Shown: positions 10,201 to 60,077 of the stretch, one piece after another
How positions within the stretch are numbered: position 1 is the first letter of the stretch
How the letters are laid out: every line of letters starts with the position of its first letter
DNA from: Minutocellus sp. GHC0000111
Lineage: Eukaryota
Direction of reading: 5' to 3'
Length of the DNA stretch: 64,000 nucleotides
NCBI GenBank assembly: GCA_977018835.1
Contig: OZ361257.1
Coordinates: 1,116,001-1,180,000 of the forward strand
Translations under genes and position numbers: made by a program
Notes under the pieces: model-generated
What the model saw: only the letters and a program-made list of their open reading frames with translations
Told to the model about the DNA's origin: nothing
The model's database searches: none

Positions 10201-12422
10201 TTATGCCTCAACGGGCTCTTCAACCTTCTTCGCGGCAACCTTTTGTGCGACACCAGCGGGGAGAGCACCGCAGTCAATAGCATCAGACATGTCCTCAACG
10301 AGCTCTCCGCTGTTGTTGTAAACCTCGAAAGAAAGAGGGAGGAAGTAATCGGATTCGCCCTCGGGAGTCTTGACCTGGACACCACCAAGGACGGCAACCT
10401 TGCCATCGGCGACACTTCCGGCACCAGTGGTGACAATCTCGTCGACCATCTTCTTCTGGGCATCGTACAGAGCATAAGGGAGGTCAACCATCTTGTCCGA
10501 AGCCTTCTCGAGGTGCTCGGCATAGGGGAGGAGCATGGTACCAACAAAGTTCTGCTGAGCATCAATAGCAGTCTCGGGAGGTCCGTACTTGGAGGTCTCG
10601 CCGGAGTGAACGCCCGAAACGTATCCCGAAGCGGCGACCGCAGATCCACAGCAAGCACCACCGTTGGCACGGCCACGGCGCTCGACGGTACCGACCTTGC
10701 CGGTGGAGTCAACACCAACGTGGGGACCGAAAACAACAAGGCAGGAACCGCCATCGGGGATGTGCGAGGCCATGGCGCCGAAGGCGGTCTTACCGCCGAA
10801 GGGGAAGCCAGCAAGGCCGCCCATGCTGAAGTTGTCGTTGTAAACCTTCTTGAAATCGTCCTCGAGGACGCGGTTGACCTCATCGGCGCAGAGGAAGGTG
10901 GCAACGAGAGAGTTGGGTCCGTATCCGTGCTTCTCGAGCTTCTCAGCGACGGTGGAAACGAGGTCGGCGTTCTTCTTCGCCTTGGGGAAGTTGGTCTCGA
11001 TGGACTCCTTCATGGGGGTGCTGAAGGGGAGCTTGCCAACGCCAATCTTCTCACCAAGGTTTTTGGCCATGGATCCGTCGTTGTTGTAAACCTCGAAAGA
11101 AAGAGGGAGGAAGTAATCGGACATACCAGCGGGGGTATTGACCTGGATACCACCAAGGACGGCAACCTTGCCATCACCGGCAACGTTTCCAGCGCCAGCC
11201 TGGACGATGGTGTCCATGAGCTTCTTCTGGGCATCGTACAGAGCATAAGGGAGGTCAACCATCTTGTCAGCGGCCTCCTCAAGCTGCTCGGCATAGGGGA
11301 GGAGCATGGTGCCAACAAAGTTCTGCTGAGCATCATCGGGGGTGGCGGGGGGACCGTACTTGGAGGTCTCACCGGAGTGAACGCCGGCGGCATAACCAGA
11401 GGCAGCGACGGCAGATCCACAGCAAGCACCACCGTTGGCACGGCCACGGCGCTCGACGGTACCGACCTTGCCGGTGGAGTCAACACCAACGTGGGGACCG
11501 AAAACAACAAGGCAGGAACCGCCATCGGGGATGTGCGAGGCCATGGCACCGAAAGAAGTGATACCACCGAAAGGGAAGCCTATCAGATTTAAATTTTTGA
11601 CAAAAGAAAATGTGAACATTGTTAGATGAGATTAGGACAAGAAAACGAGAGGATACTTGTGATATTGTCGCAACTGTAAATGTGATGGAACACACATGAC
11701 AATGACGCGTAATTGTGCATGCTTCCTTTGGCCAGAATGTAAAGATACCAATCGAAGCTTCGAAACGTTTGTTTCAACAACAAATGTTACATAACATAGA
11801 CATTCAATAAGGATCGTGCAATTGCCAAAATATGCACATCTACCGGTATAAAAATGAACTCACCAGCGAGACCACCCATGCTGAAGTTGTCGCCGAAGAC
11901 CTTGGAGAAATCCTCCTCGAGGACGCGGTTGACCTCATCGGCGCAGAGGGAGGTGGCAACGAGAGAGTCCTTGCCGTATCCGAACTCCTTGAGGGCCGAG
12001 GCGACCTCGCTCACGAGCTTCTTGTTGGACTTGGCACCGGGGAAGACCTCCTCGATCTTGTCGACCGTCTCGGGCATGCCGGAGACAACGTCGGGGAGCT
12101 TCTCGAGGAGCTTGTTGGTGGCAACGCCAGCGGCGAGGGCACCGGCACCGACGGTGACGATGTCCTTGACTCCCTTGGCGGACTCAACGGCGGCCTCGGC
12201 GGCACGGGCGGCGGGGGGGAGGCCGGAAGTGGCCAGAGCGACGCCGCCGACGGCACCGGCAACCTTCTTCGCGACCTTGAGGGCGGCCTTGCGCTTGGCT
12301 CCGTTGGCCATCTCCAGCTCGGTGAAGGAGGCGCGCTGAGTACCGGCGGCCATGTGCTGGGGGGCGAAGGCCGAAGCCGTGCCGAAGAGGGAGAGGGCGA
12401 CGAGGGCAGTGTTGAGCTTCAT
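10201..12422 (-). CDS. Theta-type carbonic anhydrase (two tandem LCIB-like domains), plastid/thylakoid-lumen targeted; intron 11580-11863
   Basis: Signal peptide plus ASA-FAP, then a basic/hydrophobic AxA lumen-like segment. Each domain has the LCADE, GPHVG and ACCGS Zn-ligand motifs. The GTGAG...TAG intron restores GGLAGFPFGG. Confidence 0.93.
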
Positions 12423-12908
12423 TTTCGTTTATTATCATCATATCTAGAGAGCTTGGCTGCCAAAGAGTGTCGAGGGCTGCCGCGGTGGATACGTCGGAAT
12501 CAAGCAAGCGCAGGCGCAAAGAAGAAGCGGCCCCAGCAGCGCAAGAAGCGCAAAGAAGAAGTTCGAATTTCGGTACTGCGGCGAAGTTTGGCCACTGACG
12601 TATTCGTTTTAGTGGCTCAAATTTCCAAGGTTAGTGGATGTAAGTAAAAAGAGGGGGAAGACAAGATGTGAGTATTTGGGGGGCATCATGAGCGCCAGCC
12701 TCACCTTTCGGCATCGCGCTCTCGATGATTTTTGGCGCGTTGAGATCGGTTGAGCTGATGCGTTTGATTTGAGCAGTTTTGCAAGCTGAGCTGATTTCTC
12801 ACCATTCAACCTCACACTTCGTCCACACGTAGCTAGAGTCTTATTCCTTATTTGGTTCACCCTTCAGTCTGACTTCCTCCTTCGCTACAATTGCTGCCGC
12901 CTGTCATC

Positions 12909-15900
12909 ATGCCAACAGAATCTCACGTCGACATGTCTTTCAGCCATCGTCGACTACGAAGACGTCCAGCGGCAGCAGCCGACTCCACTTTCACTTCATG
13001 TTGTTGTGGCATAGCTGCTATCCTCTTGCTGACATTCATTCCAACGCAAGCCTCCGGCAACACCTCGATTATGATACCTCCTGCACTACCTACTTCACAT
13101 GCATATCCAGAGAGAAGCAGCAGGCAGGTGTTGCTTGCTTCTCAACAGCGACGTGTTGAGAAACAGCACCGGCAAACTGCCGACCAATCGTCTGATGCTC
13201 AAGTAGAGATATCAACCGAAGATGAGGAAGAAGATGCACCAACGACGTCTCAAGAGAGTAGCGACGAAACATCCAATTATGTCGCTCATCATATCGATGG
13301 ATATGGCAGCATTTCATCCTGCAACGACGACCACGGTAGCAGTGCTGGACGCGACATCGAAAGTAGTACCGGTAAAGCACAGTCTGACTACGAAACCATT
13401 GACTTGGAAATCAAATTTGACTACCAGATGGAACTCATCTCGTTGGCATCTGAAGAGAATAGCTCGGATGCCTACGATGAATTGATTGCATCCACCGAGA
13501 GGACAATGCATGAAGTGATGGTGGATGGTTTTCTCCATTGTGGTTCGCCTGGCGCAACGGAAGGACATGGTATGGACCGGAAACGACGCTTGGCAACAGT
13601 AGCCGAGTCGCAACCACCCAGCCCTCGCATTGTGGGCATTAGCTCAGCACCGCAGGATGCGATATCTCTCGAGGATTCGTGCACATCCGTTCACACCACC
13701 AAAGATGCTTGTGCCGTTGTTCATGCAGCAGCCACGATCACAGTGGAGATGGATGGGATTACAAGTTCGAAGCTCTTGTCTTCAGCAATTGATACCATCC
13801 GCTCCAGCATACTCGAGAAGATTGAGACCGACATGGAGCAGGGTCAGTACGATGAACGCTATGGCCGAAATATCTTTGCCAAGATATCTTTCGGTAGTTC
13901 AAACCACATTGCGCCACCACTCGTTGCGAGCAGAAGCTCCTTGCCAGAGGAAGAGATTGGGAATGGTGCCCATGATCCTTCAGAAACGGTTGCAACACCT
14001 CTGAGGGGAGAATCGCGCACGCGTCACCGCCGACGCAATATGCGGGCCATCGTCGTTGTTATTGGTATGGTTACCATTGCAATGGTGTTTAAATTGATTT
14101 CCTACAACAAAAGCATTCGTTCAAAGAGGAGTGATGAAAAGGGTGACAAAAAGTCTTGGAGAATGCGCAGCAGCATTTGTAATTCTGGCAATGCAAAAAA
14201 CGAAAAAGATACAAATGCAACGGGAGAGAAAAAGCAGGCCAAGATGCCAAAATATGATTCGTTTGGTGGTAGCGTCAGTGCTAAGAGGTCCTAAAGCTAA
14301 GCTAGATAGATATAGCTAGTAGAGGTTAATAGGACCTACGTAGATGAAAAATGGGCCATCGGAGATGTCGTTGGCCCATGGATCAACGGTCAGGAGAGGG
14401 CACTGAGTCAGTGGTCTGATCACCGTACGTACCGTACGTATGTATACGTACGTACGTATCCCACGGTGTCAACACACCCTCGCAGATCAATGACTAGTGC
14501 CATTGAATCTACATGTAGAGTCCTAATTGGAATCTACATGTAAGTAGACTGGTCGCATGTCGACATGGTAGCGGGCGGGATGGTGCTTTGTAAAATAATC
14601 GGCCAAATTTTGCGCTCCTTTCCGCCAGTGCACCTGGAATTGTCGTTGCTCTATGCGATCTTCTTGGACCCAGTAGAATCAATCATCTCATGTCCATAGC
14701 CTTAGACCGTCTTTGCTTGACGGTTTTATTGGCGATTCCAGATGCTGTAGAGTTGTCAACGACGATAGCAGTAGGGGGCTGCGGGTGACCCATTTCTTCT
14801 AGTGCTGCCCGGATTGGTGCTGCATCTTTCATGTTGAAAAACAATCCTCCCAATTCGGCTTCAGCGGCTGAGGACGTTGCATGCTTGATGATGTTGGCAT
14901 TGACGAGGATGGCTCCATTCATTGGTGGCATGGGATCACTTGAGTCAGGCTGGCGGTGCGGGTCCTTAGGTCGGGAGCTTAGGTAGAAGCACCCTCCGAG
15001 CTTGCTTCTTGATTTCGGGGCTGACAAGCAGGAGGCGTCGCTGTGTGCACATGTGGGATCATGTCTGACTTGACGTGTCGAATGACTGCGTCGGGATGGG
15101 TTGCAAGGTAATCTAGAAGCTTCTTGGCATCTTGTCGAGTACGCTCGGTAGCTTTGGATTGTTCCGCTGAGATGCTGTTGAGTGCCGGCAAAATTGTTGA
15201 ATCAATTGCTCGACCATGGCACAAGGAGCTGCCCACCACCTGTTGAATTTCGTTGATGCCTTTGGCGTCGAGTGGTGGTGAGTCGTCTTCCGGTTCTGGC
15301 AGCTGGGGTCCCGGGCCATGCGTCGGACGATTCCATCGATGTGGCGCATGCTCGGGCCGTGAGGGGCGGTCGTGTTGGAACTTGTGGCACATCTCCTTGA
15401 CGTAGTTAGGCACAGATAGATCCACCCATTTGGCCTCGTAGTTCCACTCGAGTTGAACACCACAACAAAGTCGGCCTTCCCAATCGGTAGTGATCTTGTG
15501 CTTGGAGTTGAGGGCCTGAATGAGATGGTCTGCATGCTCTTTCCCGACACACTTTACTCCAAAATCGTCAACGGTTAGGCAAAAGGTAATTGGGCGGGTT
15601 TTGTGCCTCCAAAGGCCGGCAGCACGCTTGCAAGGGAAATGGCCATGGGGTTTGAGATGCTTGACAAGTTGATCGTAGGCTAGGCGTCCTGCCTGGGGTG
15701 ATCCATGCATTCCGCCATCGATTCTGACCAATGCTCGACCATTCTTTTACTTTGTCGTGGAGGTCGTAGGCTTCCATGACTTCGTCGGGGATGAGAGCTA
15801 CTGGCGCCCACATCCATTCTGGCTCTGGCATGGTGCCATTGAGATAGAAGTCACTGATGTCAATTCCCATGAAACGAGCGTTGTCTGTAGAGATGACGCT

Positions 15901-18900
15901 GTTGAAAAGTAACTTTGCAGTCAACATTCCAGTTGTCGGGGTCGAGACTGTACCAGGGTAATGAATTTTGTCGCCTCCTGCAGTCCATCGAACTCGGTTG
16001 GGATTTGGTTTATGGGAGCGATAGTCGGCGACAATGCGGAGGTGTGTGGCTTTTCCCCCCCGAGGCAGTTCGGACCAGTGGACGAAAGCCATTGCGTTGG
16101 AGGGAATGCTAGCTCTGTTTCCAACTCGGCCGTCCGTTAGCCGTCCAATTTCATTGATGTTTGCTTGAATGAATTGGTCCCTCATGTTCGTTTTGAGGAG
16201 GTCGCGGTATTCAAGCATTGCACCAGTGTCGGGATGGACGACGGCGTTAGCAAAGTGTTGGAGGTTTGGTAAAGGCGAGAAAGCTGCCATGTTGGCCACG
16301 TGGTGGGTACTACGACGAGATGATGGCCGTGGGGGAGGGTTCCGATGTGGAATGCACCCTCGCTGACGGTGTGATCGTCGTCGAGGTGGTTTGGCGGTCG
16401 ATGGTTTGGACTTGCTTGTCGATTTTGCTGGAGCTGGTAATGTTGGAGTGGTATCGATCGTTGGAGACTTGCGTTTACGTTGCCGACGGGAGGTGGGGGC
16501 ATTGGAACTTTGATTGGATGTTACGGCGGTTGCATCGTCGTCATGATTATCATCATCGTCGCCGTTGGGCTCGTCTACTGCAGCCAAAGGATTGTAGCAG
16601 TTGGAAGAAACTGACGAGAGAGGTGGCGCGTTGGATCGACGTGATCGACGGCTTTTTGTGGTGGCTGCATCACATGTGGAGGATTTTGCCACCCTCGGAG
16701 GTTGCTGGGGCTGAGGTAACGGAGCGTTGGGGTTGGAGACAAGGTGTCGGCCTACTTCAGTCTCGTTCATCTCTTCTACGTCGTCGTCCTCGCATTTGAT
16801 TTTGTAGTACTTATGCTTCTTGTCAAATGCAACGACTCTACCCTTGTAATTGCGATCTCCAAACACTTTGGCGACGATGGTGCCGAGGCGGAATCGTTGG
16901 GAGTCGTCATCGTTCTCCAGCACCCTCGGAGCTGCGGTTGTCCGCATCGTCTCATCAGAGGCGGAGGTGGCAGATTCTGCTGGGGTCACGCTGTTGAAAA
17001 TCTCGGAGAGCTCTTCTAAAGCTTGACGATGCTCGTCTCGAAGGGGAGCAAGGGGTGCCGCTGGATGTGGATTCTGTAGAGCGTGCAGGAGTTCATGAGC
17101 TGCGACTATTGCTGCATCGGCCGACGACGTTTTGGGTACCGGAATCATTTTGGGGAGCCAGACGAGTGTGTTACCAGTGCGTTCCGCCCGAGTTTCCTCA
17201 ATCCAAACCTTGTAACACCGGTAGTGTTCCATGGCTGGACCGACATAGTACCCATCAACGCCATGCGGGGACCAAGAGCCGCGTGCCGAGGGCATCTCGT
17301 GAAAGATGACCTTGCATCCGAGGGGGCCGAGAGGCGTGCGATTGAAATCAAAGCCGCCATTGAGTTGCTCGTACGCTGACAGTCGAGGGTTGACTCGGGA
17401 TGCTCTCAGGAAATTGAGGGTCATTACCGCCTGCTCCAGCAATTTATCCCACAAGATGAGGGGAAAGTCGGGATCGGTGCCACAGAGAATCGCAATGAAA
17501 TGATTCTTAAAGGTTCGAATGGCTCGTTCGGCCGCATTTCGGCGGTGGGAGTGCGTTGGGGTCAATTGAAAATCTACATCCTTTTCTTCCATGAACTCCT
17601 TCAGCTCTCGACTCACTTCATTATCCAATCGTTGCAATTTTGGGCGAAATCCTCGCTTGGAGAGGTATTCGAAAATAGTTTGGTGCGCTCGGCGCATTTC
17701 CGTTCCCGATCGGCTTTTCATTGGTTCGGCCAAGATGCTGTTGGAGTCATAGTCATAGACGACCATTATGCACTGGTGGCCAGAAATAGACGATGCCAAG
17801 AAACGGCCGTGCTGATCTGAGAAGATCTGGCCCGTTTTGTCATGACAATCAGCAAAGACATAGTTGGTGCGCTGTTGGTGTTGTGCCGGGTGGAGATCCT
17901 GCTCGGTTTCGTCCACCCCAGGGAGAGATTTTGGCGTAGCCATCGACCGTTTGGGCTTGGTCGACCTGATGTTCTTGCGCTGCTGGTCTAAGTGACCTTT
18001 AATCATCGGTGTCGACTGTGGCATGTGCTTACGTACAAGCTTTGATGTGAGGCCTGGCCAAGATCTATAAAATCCCGCATCGATTGCTTTGCACCAGGTA
18101 GATAGCTGAGGACTGCCAGCGCACCAATGAAAAAAGGCTACACGTTCCGGAACCGTCTCCTGGGCAATTGCGGCGTTGGCAGCATGTTGGATGACGTTGG
18201 GGCCGGGGAGCGGCGACGTGGTGGGCGAGCAATTAAGATCTACCATCCACAATTTCGTTGAGGGGTCTCGTTTACCTTGCAAAATGACGGTGTTGTCCTT
18301 GGCGATGACTACCGAATCCTTGTCGAAAGTGGCAACACATCCATCGTCACACAGCTGCCCAATCGATAGGAGCGATGATGCCATATTATTGAAAACATAG
18401 GCCTTGCTAGCCGATGGGGAAACCCCAGGGAGGCGAAGCGTGGCCTCGTGGGTGTTCGTCATTGTGCTGTTATCCGGAAGGGTGACGCTGATAGGAATTG
18501 CTGTCTGTTGGACGTTGAAAATAGGGCCATCGTGCGACAGGCATTGGGGCTTCTGGACAAAATGTCCCGTCGTTCCAGCATCTGCTGCGAGGACGATTGG
18601 CTCTTGAGTTGGAGGTTAGCTTTTTGACGTAAGAAAAGCTAACGAAGGCGGGGAGGAGGTGGATTCAGACATGCTGTCCTCTATTTTATACTGATTAACA
18701 TCCACCGTCCCTCCCGCTCAGTTACGACGCGAGCTACCACCGCAAGGATTGTACTTGGTGGCGTTATCAACGTGGTTGGGCCCTTTGCAAGTGCATTCAA
18801 AGCTGGGGTGGTTGGACGAACAGCCGCACGTGTGGCAATGGTGGCCTCTGGGGAGGATCGACTGCAGTTCCCGCTTCTCCTGGCGGTTGAGGTTAGGACC

Positions 18901-20830
18901 TTGGCCTGGGAAGTGGCCGGCGCCGTTCTGCTGGCCACCGCCGCGGTAGCCTCCACTGCCACCAGCATGGTTGCGTCCCTCACGCAGAACGCGGTTCTCG
19001 GCCTTGAGTGAAGCTATTTCTTGGCGAAGTTTGGCAATGGTGTCATCCTTCTCGTTGCTCTTTTTGGCGAGGTTCGCCATCATGGCTTGGTTGGTCTTGA
19101 GGGCTTCGGTGGTGTCAGCCAAAAGGAGATCGGCTCGAGAAAGAAATGGATCGTCCGAGGCCGATGAGGCCAAATTCGCGCCATGATATCCTGCCGCTTC
19201 GGTGGTGGCATTGGCCATCTTCTTGTCATGCCAATCGCGGAAGTCCGACTGCATGTTGGCCCACGTGCGTTCGGCCTCCGGTCTGTCGTCCCAGTCCTCG
19301 CATGCCTTCTTTGCCAATGAGAACCTGCGCACGGAGCGGTAGAACTTGGAGACCTTTTGCTTGTTGGTGAAGGGTTCGCCGGCCGTTTCAAACGCCTTGA
19401 AGACTTTGTTGAATGTGGCGATGTGGGTGTCGATGGGTCCCCCGTCGTGCTGCTTCTCGAGCTGCTTCTCTAATTCCTCCTTCTGAGTCTCGTTGAATTT
19501 CAAGTAGCGATCGGCAATGCTGTCGATGATTTGGCGGATGGTGACTGGCTGGAAACCGAGCATGTCATCTTCGAGATGATTGATGTAGACGGCGTCGATC
19601 GAGTCGAGGAGGAGATTCTTGAGCGCCGTGTTGACTTGCTCGTGCAAGTTGCAGTGGCCCTTTTCGATGCAACATCCCCGGATTGCACGATCGCGTTGGT
19701 CTAGATTGGCCACGGCGGGAATGGTAGGGCTGGGGCCAGGATTTGCCGGAGGCACATGTGGTCGGCCGTTACTTTTGGTGGTGTGTTCGGCATCGCTGAC
19801 GACGAGGCCCAAATGGCCGAGGTTGTGGTCATTGCACCCTCTGCTGGAGTGCTGGCCGCCGCTTGTTGAAGTTCCTTGAGCGCTTTGGCAACACGCTCGC
19901 GTTGGGGAGGTTGTCCTGGGTCATTCATACGTGTGATTAACTTGGTGGGGAGAATCGGCTCTGCGCCGAGAGGTTGGCCAAAAACTGTGTCGGGATTCAT
20001 GCTGGTGTTTCAGTCAGCGAAGACAGGCAGCACGGCGGTGTTGCTGCTGCTGCTGCGAGACGTGTGTGATCGACAGAAGGTTCGATCCAGAGAAGTGTGA
20101 TCGATTGGATGGGTCGATCTGGTCAGGACTTTCGGGGAAGGGATTGGATCGTCGTTCCAACATTGTCGAAAGAAACGGTCGTTTTGGCCGATTGAAGATG
20201 TGTCGGTTTTTCTTGCGTGACGAGTGAGAGAACCCAAGACACAAACCGGTGAGGTGCGAACCGAAATGGGGCGAGCACGGGTGGAAAAGATGTATCACGT
20301 AGAGGTCTGCTAAGAGGTCCTAAAGCTAAGCTAGATAGATATAGCTAGTAGAGGTTAATAGGACCTACGTAGATGAAAAATGGGCCATCGGAGATGTCGT
20401 TGGCCCATGGATCAACGGTCAGGAGAGTGCACTGAGTCAGTGGTCTGATCACCGTACGTACCGTACGTATGTATACGTACGTACGTATCCCACGGTATCA
20501 ACAGTCAGCAATACATCTATTATTGTCGAAGAAGAAGAAGATAATGACAAGAGCCAGAGCGATGATTTCGAGGGAAATGAGAGCATCCAAGAGAGCATTG
20601 AGAGTGATGATGACGATGACTGGACATACGATGCAATTGGTAGACAAGCGAGCCTGGAAATACTTGATTTGGAGTCTGGCGCAGGTGCTCCTGCCGCTGT
20701 TGCAGGTGACGAATCAATGAACGTCGTCTCGGCTCCTCCCTCTGCTTCGAACGCGAAGATGCTACAAATGATGGCGAATGGCCAGATCCACATGGGCTTC
20801 GAGGAAGCTTGGGAGACTTTCGACAATTGA
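12909..20830 (+). CDS. Diatom-type single-pass membrane protein of unknown function, interrupted by the copia element (coding 12909-14278 + 20509-20830)
   Basis: Signal-like and TM segments. Removing the element and one GTCAG copy restores an open frame ...SFGGSVS|NTSIIVEEEED...EEAWETFDN* ending at TGA 20828-20830. Confidence 0.75.
14279..14474 (-). repeat. 3' LTR
   Basis: Direct repeat of 20308-20503 with 2 mismatches; contains a TACG/CGTA array. Confidence 0.97.
14523..18600 (-). pseudogene. copia pol (protease, integrase, Tudor-like insert, RT, RNase H), disrupted
   Basis: PR LAADAGTTGHF; IN RLDNE...HRRNAAERAIRTFKNHF; RT DISDFYL, GMHGSPQAG, LTVDDFGVK; RH SDAS, SSAAEAELG, VDNSTA, AMDMR. 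Frameshifts near 15745 and 15045; 7-bp insertion 14679-14685. Confidence 0.95.
18718..20000 (-). pseudogene. copia gag
   Basis: GHLGLVV..AE...VPPANPGP N-terminal motif, W.....ERTWANMQSDF, CoDi-type C-terminal knuckle CHTCG...H....C......H...AT..N..GGS; frameshift near 19840. Confidence 0.85.
20308..20503 (-). repeat. 5' LTR
   Basis: See 3' LTR; reads TGTTGA...TTAGCA on the element strand. Confidence 0.97.
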
Positions 20831-20974
20831 GTGGGAAAAGAAAGGTTTTGTTGAACAGAGTTGAGGTCGCTGGGCTGCGACACTGAATAAGTTGGGAATT
20901 AATAAAGGTTATAGAGATGTAAATGGCTATTAGATTGAAATGTCATTTTATTTGCTCTAGTGTACACGTAGTAA

Positions 20975-56284: not shown

Positions 56285-59200
56285 TCATTCTGTTTCCTCC
56301 GAAGGATCTTCCTTTGTATCATAGTCCTCTGCGAAATTGACGACCCGATTGATTCCTCGAGGCTGTTCATCCCGAAGCAAGAGCTGTAATTTGGGGATGC
56401 GGTCGGAAAAGTTGGTCATGAAATCGGTAGCAAGCTCCTCTGTCTCGTCAAAGGTGAAAAGATTGATATCGACACGGGTGTCTCCGTCCCACGCCACGAC
56501 AACGGTGCCCTCTTCCATGACGGCGGCTGCCATGGCGCCATCACCAATATCTTTTTCGACCAACGTGACGCCTTCGGTGATTGTGTACCCCATCGCTGCG
56601 ATAGTCTCACTCAGCGCCTTTTCGATTGCAGCGCTCGAAGTTGACGGACCCCCTTCTTCGATATTCAGCTGGAAGACAGTCTGACGACCAAATGAATTCT
56701 GGCTGACATACTGCATTAGAGAATCTTCGAGATCATAGTCATCCTTCCTGAAGTACTGAGGATTGAATTCATTTTGAGCTTTGACCAGAGCACCTTGAAC
56801 CTTTCGAACAACAACGTCAAGGCCAGAAGTTCGCTCTTCAACATTCTTCGCAACATCTTCCAAATGGATGAAGAAGTCGGGATCCTCGGTAGAGAGAATA
56901 CCAACCTCCATCATTTTGTCAGAGCTCGAGATGACTAGCTCGGCGGCAAACATGGGATCATAGATGAGAGCCTTTCGCACTCTGTCAATCAAGTTATGCC
57001 TCTTGCGCCAGGTGTCCCGATGATCTGGCATCAAGCTCACGATGACAAAGTGGTCCGTCAATAGCTGGAAAAAGTTTCGCTGACTACTCCAGATACTGGA
57101 GGCAATCTTGAGCATGGTGACGGGCGCAATGGGATCGACAACGATGGCACTAATGCCTCCCTTGGAGGTCGCAGCTCGAAGGGCGACAAGGACCTCTTTC
57201 TCGCATTGCACCATGAGATCACCAATGTTCTCGGAAAACTCGGAGGCCGCGGCGAGCTCGGGACACGTGGGGATGAAAATGACCTCATCGATGCTCTTAT
57301 GGCGAGATACTGCGTCAAGGCTCTTGCAATCTTCTTTGGTTGGGCCACACAGGACAGCAGCCAACGCACCATCGCCTTGAATTAGATTCAGGGTTTCGTC
57401 CATAACGATATCGTTAGTTTCCTTGCTGTTCAAGTCACCCTCCTTGACATAGTCCACGCCGTCACAGCTCCGCGTCTTCTCGATAAGAGGTCCGATCGTT
57501 TTGTGGTCCTCGTCCCATGTGCTGGTTCCCGTCATACCGCCGGTAACGATTCGGTACGAAGACAAGGAGGAGTGATCACTGCCAAGAGCCTTCACAAGTG
57601 CATCACGCAGCTGCTCCATCTTATTGAACGAAGACCAAAGATGAATGTCCAAGGCACAGTACTTTTGATCGGGCCAGACGCGGACGGTAACATGACCTTC
57701 ATTCATGGGGATTACGGTTGAAACCGCATATTTACCTGGCGACTTGGTGTCGATCGGGTTCATCCCTTCGCTCTGAAGGACTTGGACGAGTTTGGAAACG
57801 AGGCTGCTGAATGGCTTGAGAGGGACGGTGGCATTCTCTACTTCTGAAACCATTAGGATAGCCGATCGACCTGTCATCTCTTCGTCCGGTTCGGATTCGT
57901 CGTCATCGCATTTTCCTTGTTCCAGTGCGGAGGTTCTCCTGTAGTCATGGAAGAGCTCGAGAGGATGATTCTCAATGGGCTCCAACAGCTTCGTACCAAC
58001 ATTGTGATCCTTGCGCTCATGGTGAAGGAAGTCGATGGCATTGCTGCCCAGAACGACGACCTGGTCACAAATGATGGGAAGGTCCGGTCGGTAAATCTGA
58101 GCAGTGTAGTCAAAGAGCTCGCTGAATTTCTCCAAATAAAGCTCGTTCTTGACCATGATACCACCGGGTCTGAGAAGGAGGGCCAGGGCATTGAAGACGT
58201 CAAGCTTCTTGTTGACGGAGAGAGACATCACGGTCTCAGAAAGGTCAATGAGAACCAGATCAAACGAGCCGAAATAATCACGAGGGAGCATCAAGAGACT
58301 CTTTGTGGCATCGCCGAACCACCATTCGACGCGTTCGTCGTCGAAGTGGGGCTGCGTGTGGAAGTACTTGAAGGACTTACGGACAACCTTCTGATCAAGT
58401 TCGAGGCCAACGACCTTTTCGATGTTGGGGTACTTCAACGTCTCATACAAAAGCATCGAATCACCACCACCGACGAAAATGACACGTCGAACATCGTCAA
58501 GGTACCGAGCTGCAAAGTCCATGTTGTATTCATGATAGTGCGGGCGGTAACTGGAACAAATTTGGACCACATCATCAAGGTCAAAGCACACATCGTCAAT
58601 GTCCTTCTTTTCCACATAGTTGAGAGTCTGATAAATCGAATCGAGATTTTCCAGGTGGTCGTAGTCCTTGAATTGCATGATGTCCCGATTGTCACAAGTA
58701 ATGGGTTTGTAGTACTGCCCATCGCTCTCGTCGTAGTAGAGGTCATCTTTCTCGTCATCAAGAGGATCATACCCATCCGACGCAGAACAAGACTTGTCGG
58801 AAGCGTCACACGGGGCATCCAGATCTGCTCCAGGAGTGGCCTTGAGGGCCAGTCTCATTGCGTTGACCAGGGCATCCACGTATTCCCATAGCATATCCAG
58901 TTCGTAGGGGTCAACTGCAGTATTCTCAGCCTCGAGCTTCTTGAGTCGCTCGAGACGCCAAATCTCCTTTTTCATGAACGAAATGGATTCCTCAGAAAGC
59001 GTGATGCCCTTGGCGAATGTCACAGCGGTCTTATCGGGGGACCCCTCTACCTCCTTGAGGTCAAAGGCAAACCGACGCCCAGCAAAGATCCAACGTTGAG
59101 GGAACTGCTCAACGAAACCATAATCGCGAAAGATATCTGTGTGAATGGCGGTGTAATGTCGAAAAAAAAAGAATCGGTGTAAGAAGGATGAGGACGGGAA

Positions 59201-60077
59201 GTAGAGATGCGACGAGATGTATTTTTTAATTGATAAAGGAAAAGAATGGACAAAGCACAAAACATCCCAAACATGTTGTGAAACCACAACACTTACCGGG
59301 AGTACCGTAACTATTGGCCCGGCCACCACAATTGTTGCACATATTGTACGAGTTGTAGAGCTGCTCTCCTTTGGCAATGTCCCGCTTGGCCGTGAGGTAG
59401 AACCTCTTTCCTTCTTCGCGGTTGTTGTTAAGATTATGATACTGTCCGTTGCGATGCGAGTACATGTCGTAGAAGGGTATCATAAGATCATCCTCCGCCC
59501 GCTGCACCACAAGCAAGGCCGCCTGTTCGTCGAGGGGGTCGGTAGAGCCGTTGCAGTCCTCCCTCCAGTCCTCCTCGAGCCACGAGACAGGTTCCGATGG
59601 GGGCAGTTCCTCTCCTAGGACCTCCTTGAACAGTTCCTTGCCCGCCTCCGACCAGGCGGAGGGGAGCTCGCCGGCCCTCTGCTTCATCAGATAATTGGTG
59701 TAGGGGGAAAAGTCGGAACCGTCTCCCTTGCGCATTTCGTTGGCAAGGCGACGGGCGGTATCGCATACCAGCGGAGGGGGGTCCGTCACCCGATAACCGG
59801 CATGGATGATGGTGTCCCACGGAATGGACACCAGAACCTCGCCCTTGGCAATGTCATCGGTGGCAAACACACCCAGGACCGAGTTGGGATCGCTCGGCAC
59901 TTCCCGACGGATTTCTTGATTGGGATTAAACTCGGTGCCCTCCCGTCCTTCGAACCATTCAACCAGTTCCTTCACTTCCGGTGCATGTTCGGCATTGCAC
60001 ACAGATACCGTTGACGAAACGGCCAAAATGGCCGCTGCGAGGAAAAGCTGGGTGCCCCGAGGAAAGTAAATCTGCAT
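56285..60077 (-). CDS. Signal peptide + SET domain + aminopropyltransferase + two degenerate AdoMetDC-like domains; intron 59137-59296
   Basis: GVFATDDIAKGEVL, PFYDMYSHRNG, GEQLYNSY, YGTPDIFRDYGFVE; RPHYHE, VIFVGGGDS, VVGLELDQ, WFGDA; EGHVTVRVWPDQKYCALDIHLW; EGTVVVAWDG...VDINLF. Confidence 0.9.

Follow-up and report, generated by a model that had tools for sequence, protein, structure and literature searches.

Strand-symmetric A-to-G change at TpA in a diatom-type copia retrotransposon family, and a possible host mutator

The stretch of 64,000 nucleotides considered here (the window; Minutocellus sp. GHC0000111, contig OZ361257.1, forward-strand positions 1,116,001 to 1,180,000) contains a copia long terminal repeat (LTR) retrotransposon of 6225 bp on the minus strand, at 14279-20503, and raises the question of why so young an insertion has lost so many of its conserved tyrosine codons. 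A reading of the letters alone (hereafter the sequence-only reading) had proposed A>G hypermutation at TpA on both strands, confined to the transposon. Alignments of the family bear this out, with the two strands alike, and about half of the family's tyrosine codons have been lost through a change of TA to TG or CA. On balance, the explanation favoured here is an episodic host mutator that acts after insertion, likely by adenine deamination of silenced chromosomal transposon DNA.

Loss of tyrosine codons in the family

The main set comprises 66 database protein fragments of the family and the window copy, with 67 tyrosine columns. The fragments were aligned to the window copy and to intact relatives (66-84% identical), and nearly all of them come from very large ENA contigs, apparently of one assembly. 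The columns at 15647 and 14958, where every copy has histidine, were excluded from the final count. Histidine or cysteine occupies 447 of the 980 tyrosine observations (251 cysteine, 196 histidine), with 5 other residues and 528 tyrosines. Since all tyrosine codons are TAY (Y, pyrimidine), a single change at TA gives one or the other of these residues. Control residues are altered in 0-2% of cases (Phe 8/732, His 3/768, Asn 25/1224, Asp 22/1583, Lys 16/1456, Cys 0/270). At least one hit is present in 65 of the 66 fragments that have at least five tyrosine columns, and a smaller set of 16 pol fragments and the window copy gives 174 altered tyrosines among 425, 172 of them to cysteine or histidine. 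The family is sizeable: the pol protein cluster numbers 113 members (15 of them listed), and the depth of contigs from sequencing run X1 over the element is, as a rough figure, 45-50 times that of the flanks.

At 25 tyrosine columns conserved in the wider group, histidine or cysteine is found in 92/245 cases in fragments from the family's own genome vs 50/3833 in other proteins. Two proteins from different copia families also have such replacements at conserved tyrosines, namely P0172 (63% identical; ENA contig of 1492 bp; 5/8) and P0275 (JGI; 2/5), and judging by these sequences the mutator likely acts on more than one family or species. Among 80 related metagenome loci, histidine or cysteine is found at just 20/1209 conserved tyrosines, and 16 related protein clusters, among them genome copies from Fragilaria crotonensis, Nitzschia inconspicua and Phaeodactylum tricornutum, have 0-4.7% in tyrosine columns; these loci and clusters are probably for the most part collapsed contigs of short reads or selected open frames, and absence elsewhere is therefore unproven. 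Because the clusters from the three named diatoms carry no such load, the distribution of the process among diatoms may be patchy. A scan of metagenome contigs with the LTR pattern gave no matches.

Spectrum and sequence context

The spectrum was read from 17 pol copies with the window codons as template, non-synonymous changes alone being visible. In all, 1186 of 1189 codons were covered, and 365 changes are of one base and 4 are not. The contexts are those of the window, which is already mutated, and some TA sites are therefore wrongly filed as non-TA. A>G at TpA was found at 140/840 sites on the coding strand (0.167) and 108/765 on the template strand (0.141), vs 11/1712 and 7/1007 at ApA, 20/2110 and 2/876 at CpA, and 1/1800 and 4/1685 at GpA, so that the rate stays under 0.01 wherever the 5' base is not T. 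Transitions dominate at TpA, with A>G at 248/1605 vs A>C at 1.5/1661 and A>T at 3.5/1560. Outside TA, A>G is in slight excess; this excess tracks the load of each copy (rho 0.81) and consists in part of hidden TA sites.

The sequence-only reading had taken TpA itself as the target. The enrichment at TpA stands, but not every TpA is hit: a 3' pyrimidine is needed, and RTAY (R, purine) is best. RTAY changed at 83/288 coding-strand and 80/258 template-strand sites (about 0.30 per strand), YTAY at 50/330 and 16/133 (0.12-0.15), RTAR at 6/159 and 12/309 (0.04) and YTAR at 1/63 and 0/65 (about 0.01), an order of RTAY >> YTAY > RTAR > YTAR in which both strands are alike in all four classes. The change is also one-way. 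In a DNA comparison with a 77%-identical relative, RTAY in the relative corresponds to TG or CA in the window at 21/38 sites, vs 0/11 in the reverse direction. RTAY density is 2.9/kb in the element vs 11.4 and 11.3 in host DNA to the left and right, while that of the control YTAR is 4.5/kb in the element vs 4.6 and 4.4; TpA observed/expected is 0.44 in the element vs 0.58-0.60 outside.

C>T is found at 24/2509 CpA and 20/2708 CpG sites, and CpG observed/expected in the element is 0.95, with no depletion. The polarity is opposite to that of repeat-induced point mutation (RIP) and of 5-methylcytosine deamination, as the sequence-only reading had claimed. Deamination of 5-methylcytosine was rejected as a cause: its direction is the opposite one, and CpG is undepleted.

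The context also bears on an improbable alternative without a deaminase, in which silenced DNA carries a modified base (N6-methyladenine at TAY or oxidised thymine at RTA) or undergoes translesion patch repair. RTAY, the hottest context, is palindromic like the sites of symmetric DNA modification, and duplex data are silent on whether the modified base is A or the paired T. However, the palindrome is not required, the effects of the 5' purine and the 3' pyrimidine being multiplicative. Polymerase eta has a preference for A>G at TA, which would suit the translesion route, but it also mutates AA and makes transversions, and here these stand at 18/2719 for ApA and 5/3221 for TpA transversions. 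The undepleted CpG likewise gives no sign of heavy mismatch-driven repair.

Support for the bases

The pattern could in principle stem from erroneous base calls in long reads at a modified motif, fixed in the assembly. Most copies do lie on large contigs of apparently one assembly, the library of sequencing runs X1-X4 is unrecorded, and the comparison was made at contig level rather than with raw reads. Nevertheless, at 4 of the 16 internal TA positions listed (16096, 16598, 17685 and 18011) the 'majority' letter is missing from the Illumina RNA run X8, which therefore agrees with the window copy there. Of the 16 listed ends of long X8 contigs, 7 adjoin RTAY-class positions (background 7.6%, p 9e-5, a post hoc test), and both X7 and X8 have T>C at the LTR TA sites 20340 and 20359. 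Proteins from short contigs are mutated as well (P0329 8/15, P0262 6/8, P0172 5/8). A long-read artefact is thus very unlikely and an assembly artefact unlikely, the support for single bases of the window copy being at contig level. Contigs aligned to the LTR gave few listed variants; contigs lose rare alleles, so no rate was taken from them.

The window copy and its surroundings

The features of the window copy and of the interrupted host frame are as follows.

12873-14278, plus strand: left part of the host frame, spared; part of a 576-codon frame, identical to the X1 empty allele over 13615-14273 (10 RTAY)
14274-14278, no strand: left target-site duplication (GTCAG), from the sequence and the empty-site joint 14273-20504
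14279-14474, minus strand: 3' LTR, 196 nt; 10 RTAY sites remain and 1 is altered (14468)
14526-15042, minus strand: RNase H region of pol, broken by a 7-nt insertion at 14678 (translation, alignment to the relative P0002, indel table)
15045-15743, minus strand: reverse transcriptase (RT) region between the frameshifts at 15745 and 15042, heavily mutated (translation; RVT_2 below cut-off in relatives)
15748-18651, minus strand: protease, integrase, linker and RT start of pol, with a stop at 18618 (translation, alignment)
16750-16884, minus strand: Tudor-like domain PF21743 within the linker that joins integrase and RT (above the Pfam cut-off, E 3.3e-10)
18721-19998, minus strand: gag, with a frameshift near 19840; 5/7 RTAY tyrosine codons altered in the window copy
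20308-20503, minus strand: 5' LTR, 196 nt; 11 RTAY sites, 0 altered
20504-20508, no strand: right target-site duplication (GTCAG), from the sequence
20509-20830, plus strand: right part of the host frame, spared; 3 RTAY in 20509-20900 with 0 substitutions vs X1

The LTR pair has TG...CA ends and a 5-bp GTCAG duplication on both sides, as in Ty1/copia elements, and gag is followed by protease, integrase, RT and RNase H in the copia order, as seen from translation and from alignment to intact relatives of 1399 aa. The RVT_2 match in the relatives P0002, P0131 and P0004 is weak and below the curated cut-off. Named database relatives are from Fragilaria, Fistulifera, Nitzschia, Cyclotella and Phaeodactylum, and for gag also from Arcocellulus; this order and these relatives indicate a diatom-type copia element, and the host is accordingly likely a diatom. 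In the window copy, the frame is shifted near 19840, 15745, 15042 and 14678, and a stop codon lies at 18618.

The insertion is young, as first proposed, because the host frame that it splits is open over 576 codons across the empty site and because contigs of X1, X2 and X5 (three runs, two studies) hold the empty site; the LTRs are identical at 194 of 196 positions. The 19 amino-acid changes named in the sequence-only reading fare well, since 18 differ from the residue shared by all three relatives that are intact, and within the family these 18 are either variable or private. WTVGG>WTAGG (15981) falls away: alanine is present in 5/5 other copies and 1/3 relatives, and the change is family-wide and no evidence for the process. 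Gag, in which the sequence-only reading had also remarked on histidine and cysteine, has the altered tyrosine codons listed above.

Changes in the window copy stop sharply at the flanks. At RTAY, 24 of 31 tyrosine codons in the interior are altered vs 1 of 22 sites in the LTRs (Fisher p 1e-7) and 0 of 13 in the flanks, compared with the empty allele. Set against the single non-TA mismatch between the LTRs, the internal hits represent, as a rough estimate, a several-hundred-fold excess. A cluster of GTAC/GTAT repeats (14422-14460 and 20451-20489) is unmutated in both LTRs at a density of 51-56 RTAY/kb. As single-stranded DNA, the LTR has a strong predicted fold (-42 and -36 kcal/mol, calculated without a shuffle control) in which this cluster forms part of a long stem, and single-strand folding and open promoter chromatin are candidates for the cause of the sparing. 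TA>CA changes are present in divergent LTR-like pieces at other loci, a point in favour of the host mutator.

Host genes are spared, and RTAY density elsewhere in the window is normal. Host tandem duplicates at 10.3-12.1 kb, which are short and 74-87% identical, give RTAY comparisons with 9 unchanged, 2 TG/CA and 2 other.

The LTRs also bear on a further alternative, that the element's own RT, or a skewed deoxynucleotide pool, places G opposite T or U in both rounds of synthesis. Such errors would fall on both strands alike and only within the element. However, the LTRs should then be hit like the interior, the loss of about half of the tyrosines per round would stop the family, and the 16 related clusters have low loads. 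RT error is accordingly regarded as highly improbable.

Several other features of this region were observed. The host frame has a weak match to ZIP transporters (E 0.0096, below cut-off), and its insertion site is polymorphic. At 10204-12428 (minus strand), the duplicates are tandem repeats of an LCIB/LCIC-type beta carbonic anhydrase (PF18599), 74-87% identical and without the TA signature. The Tudor-like domain PF21743 is also found between integrase and RT in P0002, P0131 and P0004, which are relatives at 66-84% identity, and may possibly be a chromatin reader within the copia linker; the chromodomain of chromoviruses offers a comparison. Compared with other contigs, the window copy has several insertions of 2 bases, at 15042, 19839, 20062, 20226, 20239 and 20301, at least some of them in short dinucleotide runs; they may reflect slippage or be a side effect of the A>G process. 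Farther along, at 56288-59479 (minus strand), a single frame fuses spermine/spermidine synthase and S-adenosylmethionine decarboxylase domains. This fusion resembles the long-chain polyamine synthases proposed for diatoms.

Distribution of hits and the time of mutation

Both histidine and cysteine are present at 41 of the 67 tyrosine columns, and the four-gamete test is failed by 440 of 761 site pairs (0.578 vs 0.595 +/- 0.019 under free shuffling). Because both outcomes are found within columns and pairs of sites are as incompatible as in free shuffles, the hits are independent in each copy rather than inherited along a tree, a pattern that recombination between copies could mimic. Load differs among 11 long copies, from 4/70 to 39/81 TAY opportunities (chi2 66, df 10), and the loads of the two strands covary over these copies (rho 0.69, p 0.018) with a homogeneous strand split (p 0.33). 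The strand share has no positional gradient over 32 RTAY tyrosine columns (rho -0.04), and no excess of same-strand runs was found (110/231 vs 117.9 +/- 7.1). In six long copies, the total load is 21/35 in the integrase region and 35/44 in RT-RNase H. An apparent correlation between load and all non-TA changes (rho 0.75) was discarded, as many of these are A>G at TA sites that a silent change in the window conceals.

These distributions bear on the main rival, which is editing during retrotransposition. A factor like APOBEC but with the opposite chemistry would make a one-time edit, converting A to inosine both on packaged RNA, which gives A>G in the sense strand, and on first-strand cDNA, which gives T>C there. 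This would account for the sharp boundary at the flanks, for a load that is uneven and unrelated to other changes, and for hits in nearly every fragment; the strong single-strand fold could account for the sparing of the LTRs. One of the two LTR mismatches is TA vs TG (14468/20497), as the sequence-only reading had noted. It is no proof of a hit after insertion, because the mismatch corresponds to A>G on the first-strand cDNA and is present in the 3' LTR only, and editing at the RT stage could give the same result; this follows from the standard scheme of LTR reverse transcription. On the other hand, the editing of an intermediate needs the same rate and context on RNA and on DNA, and it is at odds with the lack of a strand gradient and of same-strand runs. 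Where APOBEC is known to edit LTR elements, the strand bias is more than 10-fold (PMC4866542), and the signature in Bigelowiella natans arises on chromosomal DNA that is not of retroelement origin (10.64898/2026.01.13.699255). Editing of the intermediate is considered unlikely, though less so than base modification.

Proposed mechanism

The two strands are alike in rate, context, position and load per copy, which favours action on the chromosomal copy, and the process is probably one that follows insertion and is targeted by the host. What the data support directly are the spectrum, its context, the strand symmetry, the independence of copies, the uneven load and the sparing of flanks and LTRs. 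A chromosomal copy would be marked as foreign via small RNA or chromatin, and a putative ADAT/TadA-like enzyme would then turn the A of T-A-Y into inosine, which would pair with C at replication. TA would be lost by a hit on either strand, the site becoming TG or CA and almost never CG. Conserved tyrosines of gag, integrase and RT would become histidine or cysteine, and the copy is predicted to be non-functional even though its frames stay open. Transition-only change specific to T-A-Y is the pattern expected of an adenine deaminase of the TadA/ADAT fold; for the identity of the agent, a putative adenine deaminase is given an even chance. Action on double-stranded DNA is suggested, and the loss of conserved tyrosines would be consistent with a role in defence.

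Several points weigh against the proposal of a host mutator. Load does not correlate with private changes other than A>G (rho 0.18, p 0.59; 11 copies; 47 events in 17; low power), which fits a single event at the birth of a copy as well as it fits episodes. The sparing of flanks and LTRs fits the editing of a retrotransposition intermediate equally well, and that of the host duplicates fits it too. The mutator enzyme is putative, and the context preferred by amphioxus BjADAT2 is GAA, not TA (PMC10354150). Beyond the window copy, the evidence is at protein level and from open frames of apparently one assembly, and the evidence from this genome covers LTR retrotransposon copies.

If the proposal is true, the reach of a mutator seen once, in a rhizarian, would take in a stramenopile, with transposons hit directly, and this in the diatoms, a group for which genetic tools exist. 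The RTAY context provides a fingerprint that can be compared with the B. natans mutations and narrows the search for the enzyme, and a natural DNA adenine deaminase would be relevant to base editing. Open frames that encode destroyed proteins lead annotation to over-count intact elements, and hypermutation skews the dating of transposons and GC content.

Comparison with known systems

In ascomycetes, RIP introduces repeat-directed, dinucleotide-specific transitions on both strands that cripple transposons, by C>T changes that create TpA. The process here is alike in logic, with both-strand, dinucleotide-specific transitions in transposon copies. Unlike RIP, it erases TpA and makes no stop codons from sense codons, and C:G>T:A change at CpA is not elevated. 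The host tandem duplicates carry no such load, but they are short and only 74-87% identical.

APOBEC3 editing of LTR retrotransposons is a C-to-U process that gives sense-strand G>A with a strand bias above 10-fold (PMC4866542). It resembles the present case in its hypermutated retroelement copies and uneven load, but the change here is A>G and strand-symmetric, and no strand-biased G>A on the sense strand was found. The tRNA target of bacterial TadA, described as U-A-C(-G) (PMC10586758), resembles T-A-Y. Natural amphioxus ADAT2 (BjADAT2) is described as deaminating A in DNA with a preference for GAA, and also as deaminating C (PMC10354150). Both share A-to-I chemistry with the putative enzyme proposed here.

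In the literature covered, which left most subscription journals outside its scope, there was no report of such a process in diatoms and no flanking context was stated, although the supplements of the preprint on B. natans, where the mutated sites are tabulated, may contain one. The text of a 2025 preprint on diatom transposons (10.1101/2025.10.24.684338) does not contain TpA, RIP or hypermut, and the portion of PMC2806351 covered here does not contain RIP, hypermut or editing; the portions covered of PMC8647836 and PMC2873906 contribute nothing further. In P. tricornutum, the mutation bias is described as GC>AT (PMC6604790).

The sequence-only reading knew of no described mechanism, but the same dinucleotide signature has been reported for B. 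natans, where TpA>TpG/CpA change affects integrated DNA of nucleocytoplasmic large DNA viruses (NCLDV) as well as of virophages (Mettrop et al., bioRxiv 2026, 10.64898/2026.01.13.699255). According to that preprint, the signature arose on chromosomal DNA in a subset of lines in a mutation-accumulation experiment, and ADAT2 is proposed, without proof, as the enzyme. As in B. natans, the changes here are almost purely A>G/T>C transitions confined to TpA with both outcomes, foreign DNA is hit while host genes are spared, and load is uneven among lineages or copies. It is a tentative and rather doubtful extension that a diatom DNA adenine editor, a natural equivalent of the engineered adenine base editors, steered to silenced transposons and acting at R-T-A-Y on both strands with the erasure of tyrosine codons, shares its origin with the B. 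natans process as a eukaryote-wide adenine analogue of RIP. B. natans is a rhizarian with large viral inserts, in which transposons are merely suggested as targets by TpA-poor coding sequences, and the main text of the preprint names no flanking context, LTR or diatom. New here, within the literature covered, are the diatom-type host, a young, multi-copy LTR transposon family as the direct target, the RTAY context and the sparing of LTRs, together with that of the flanks.

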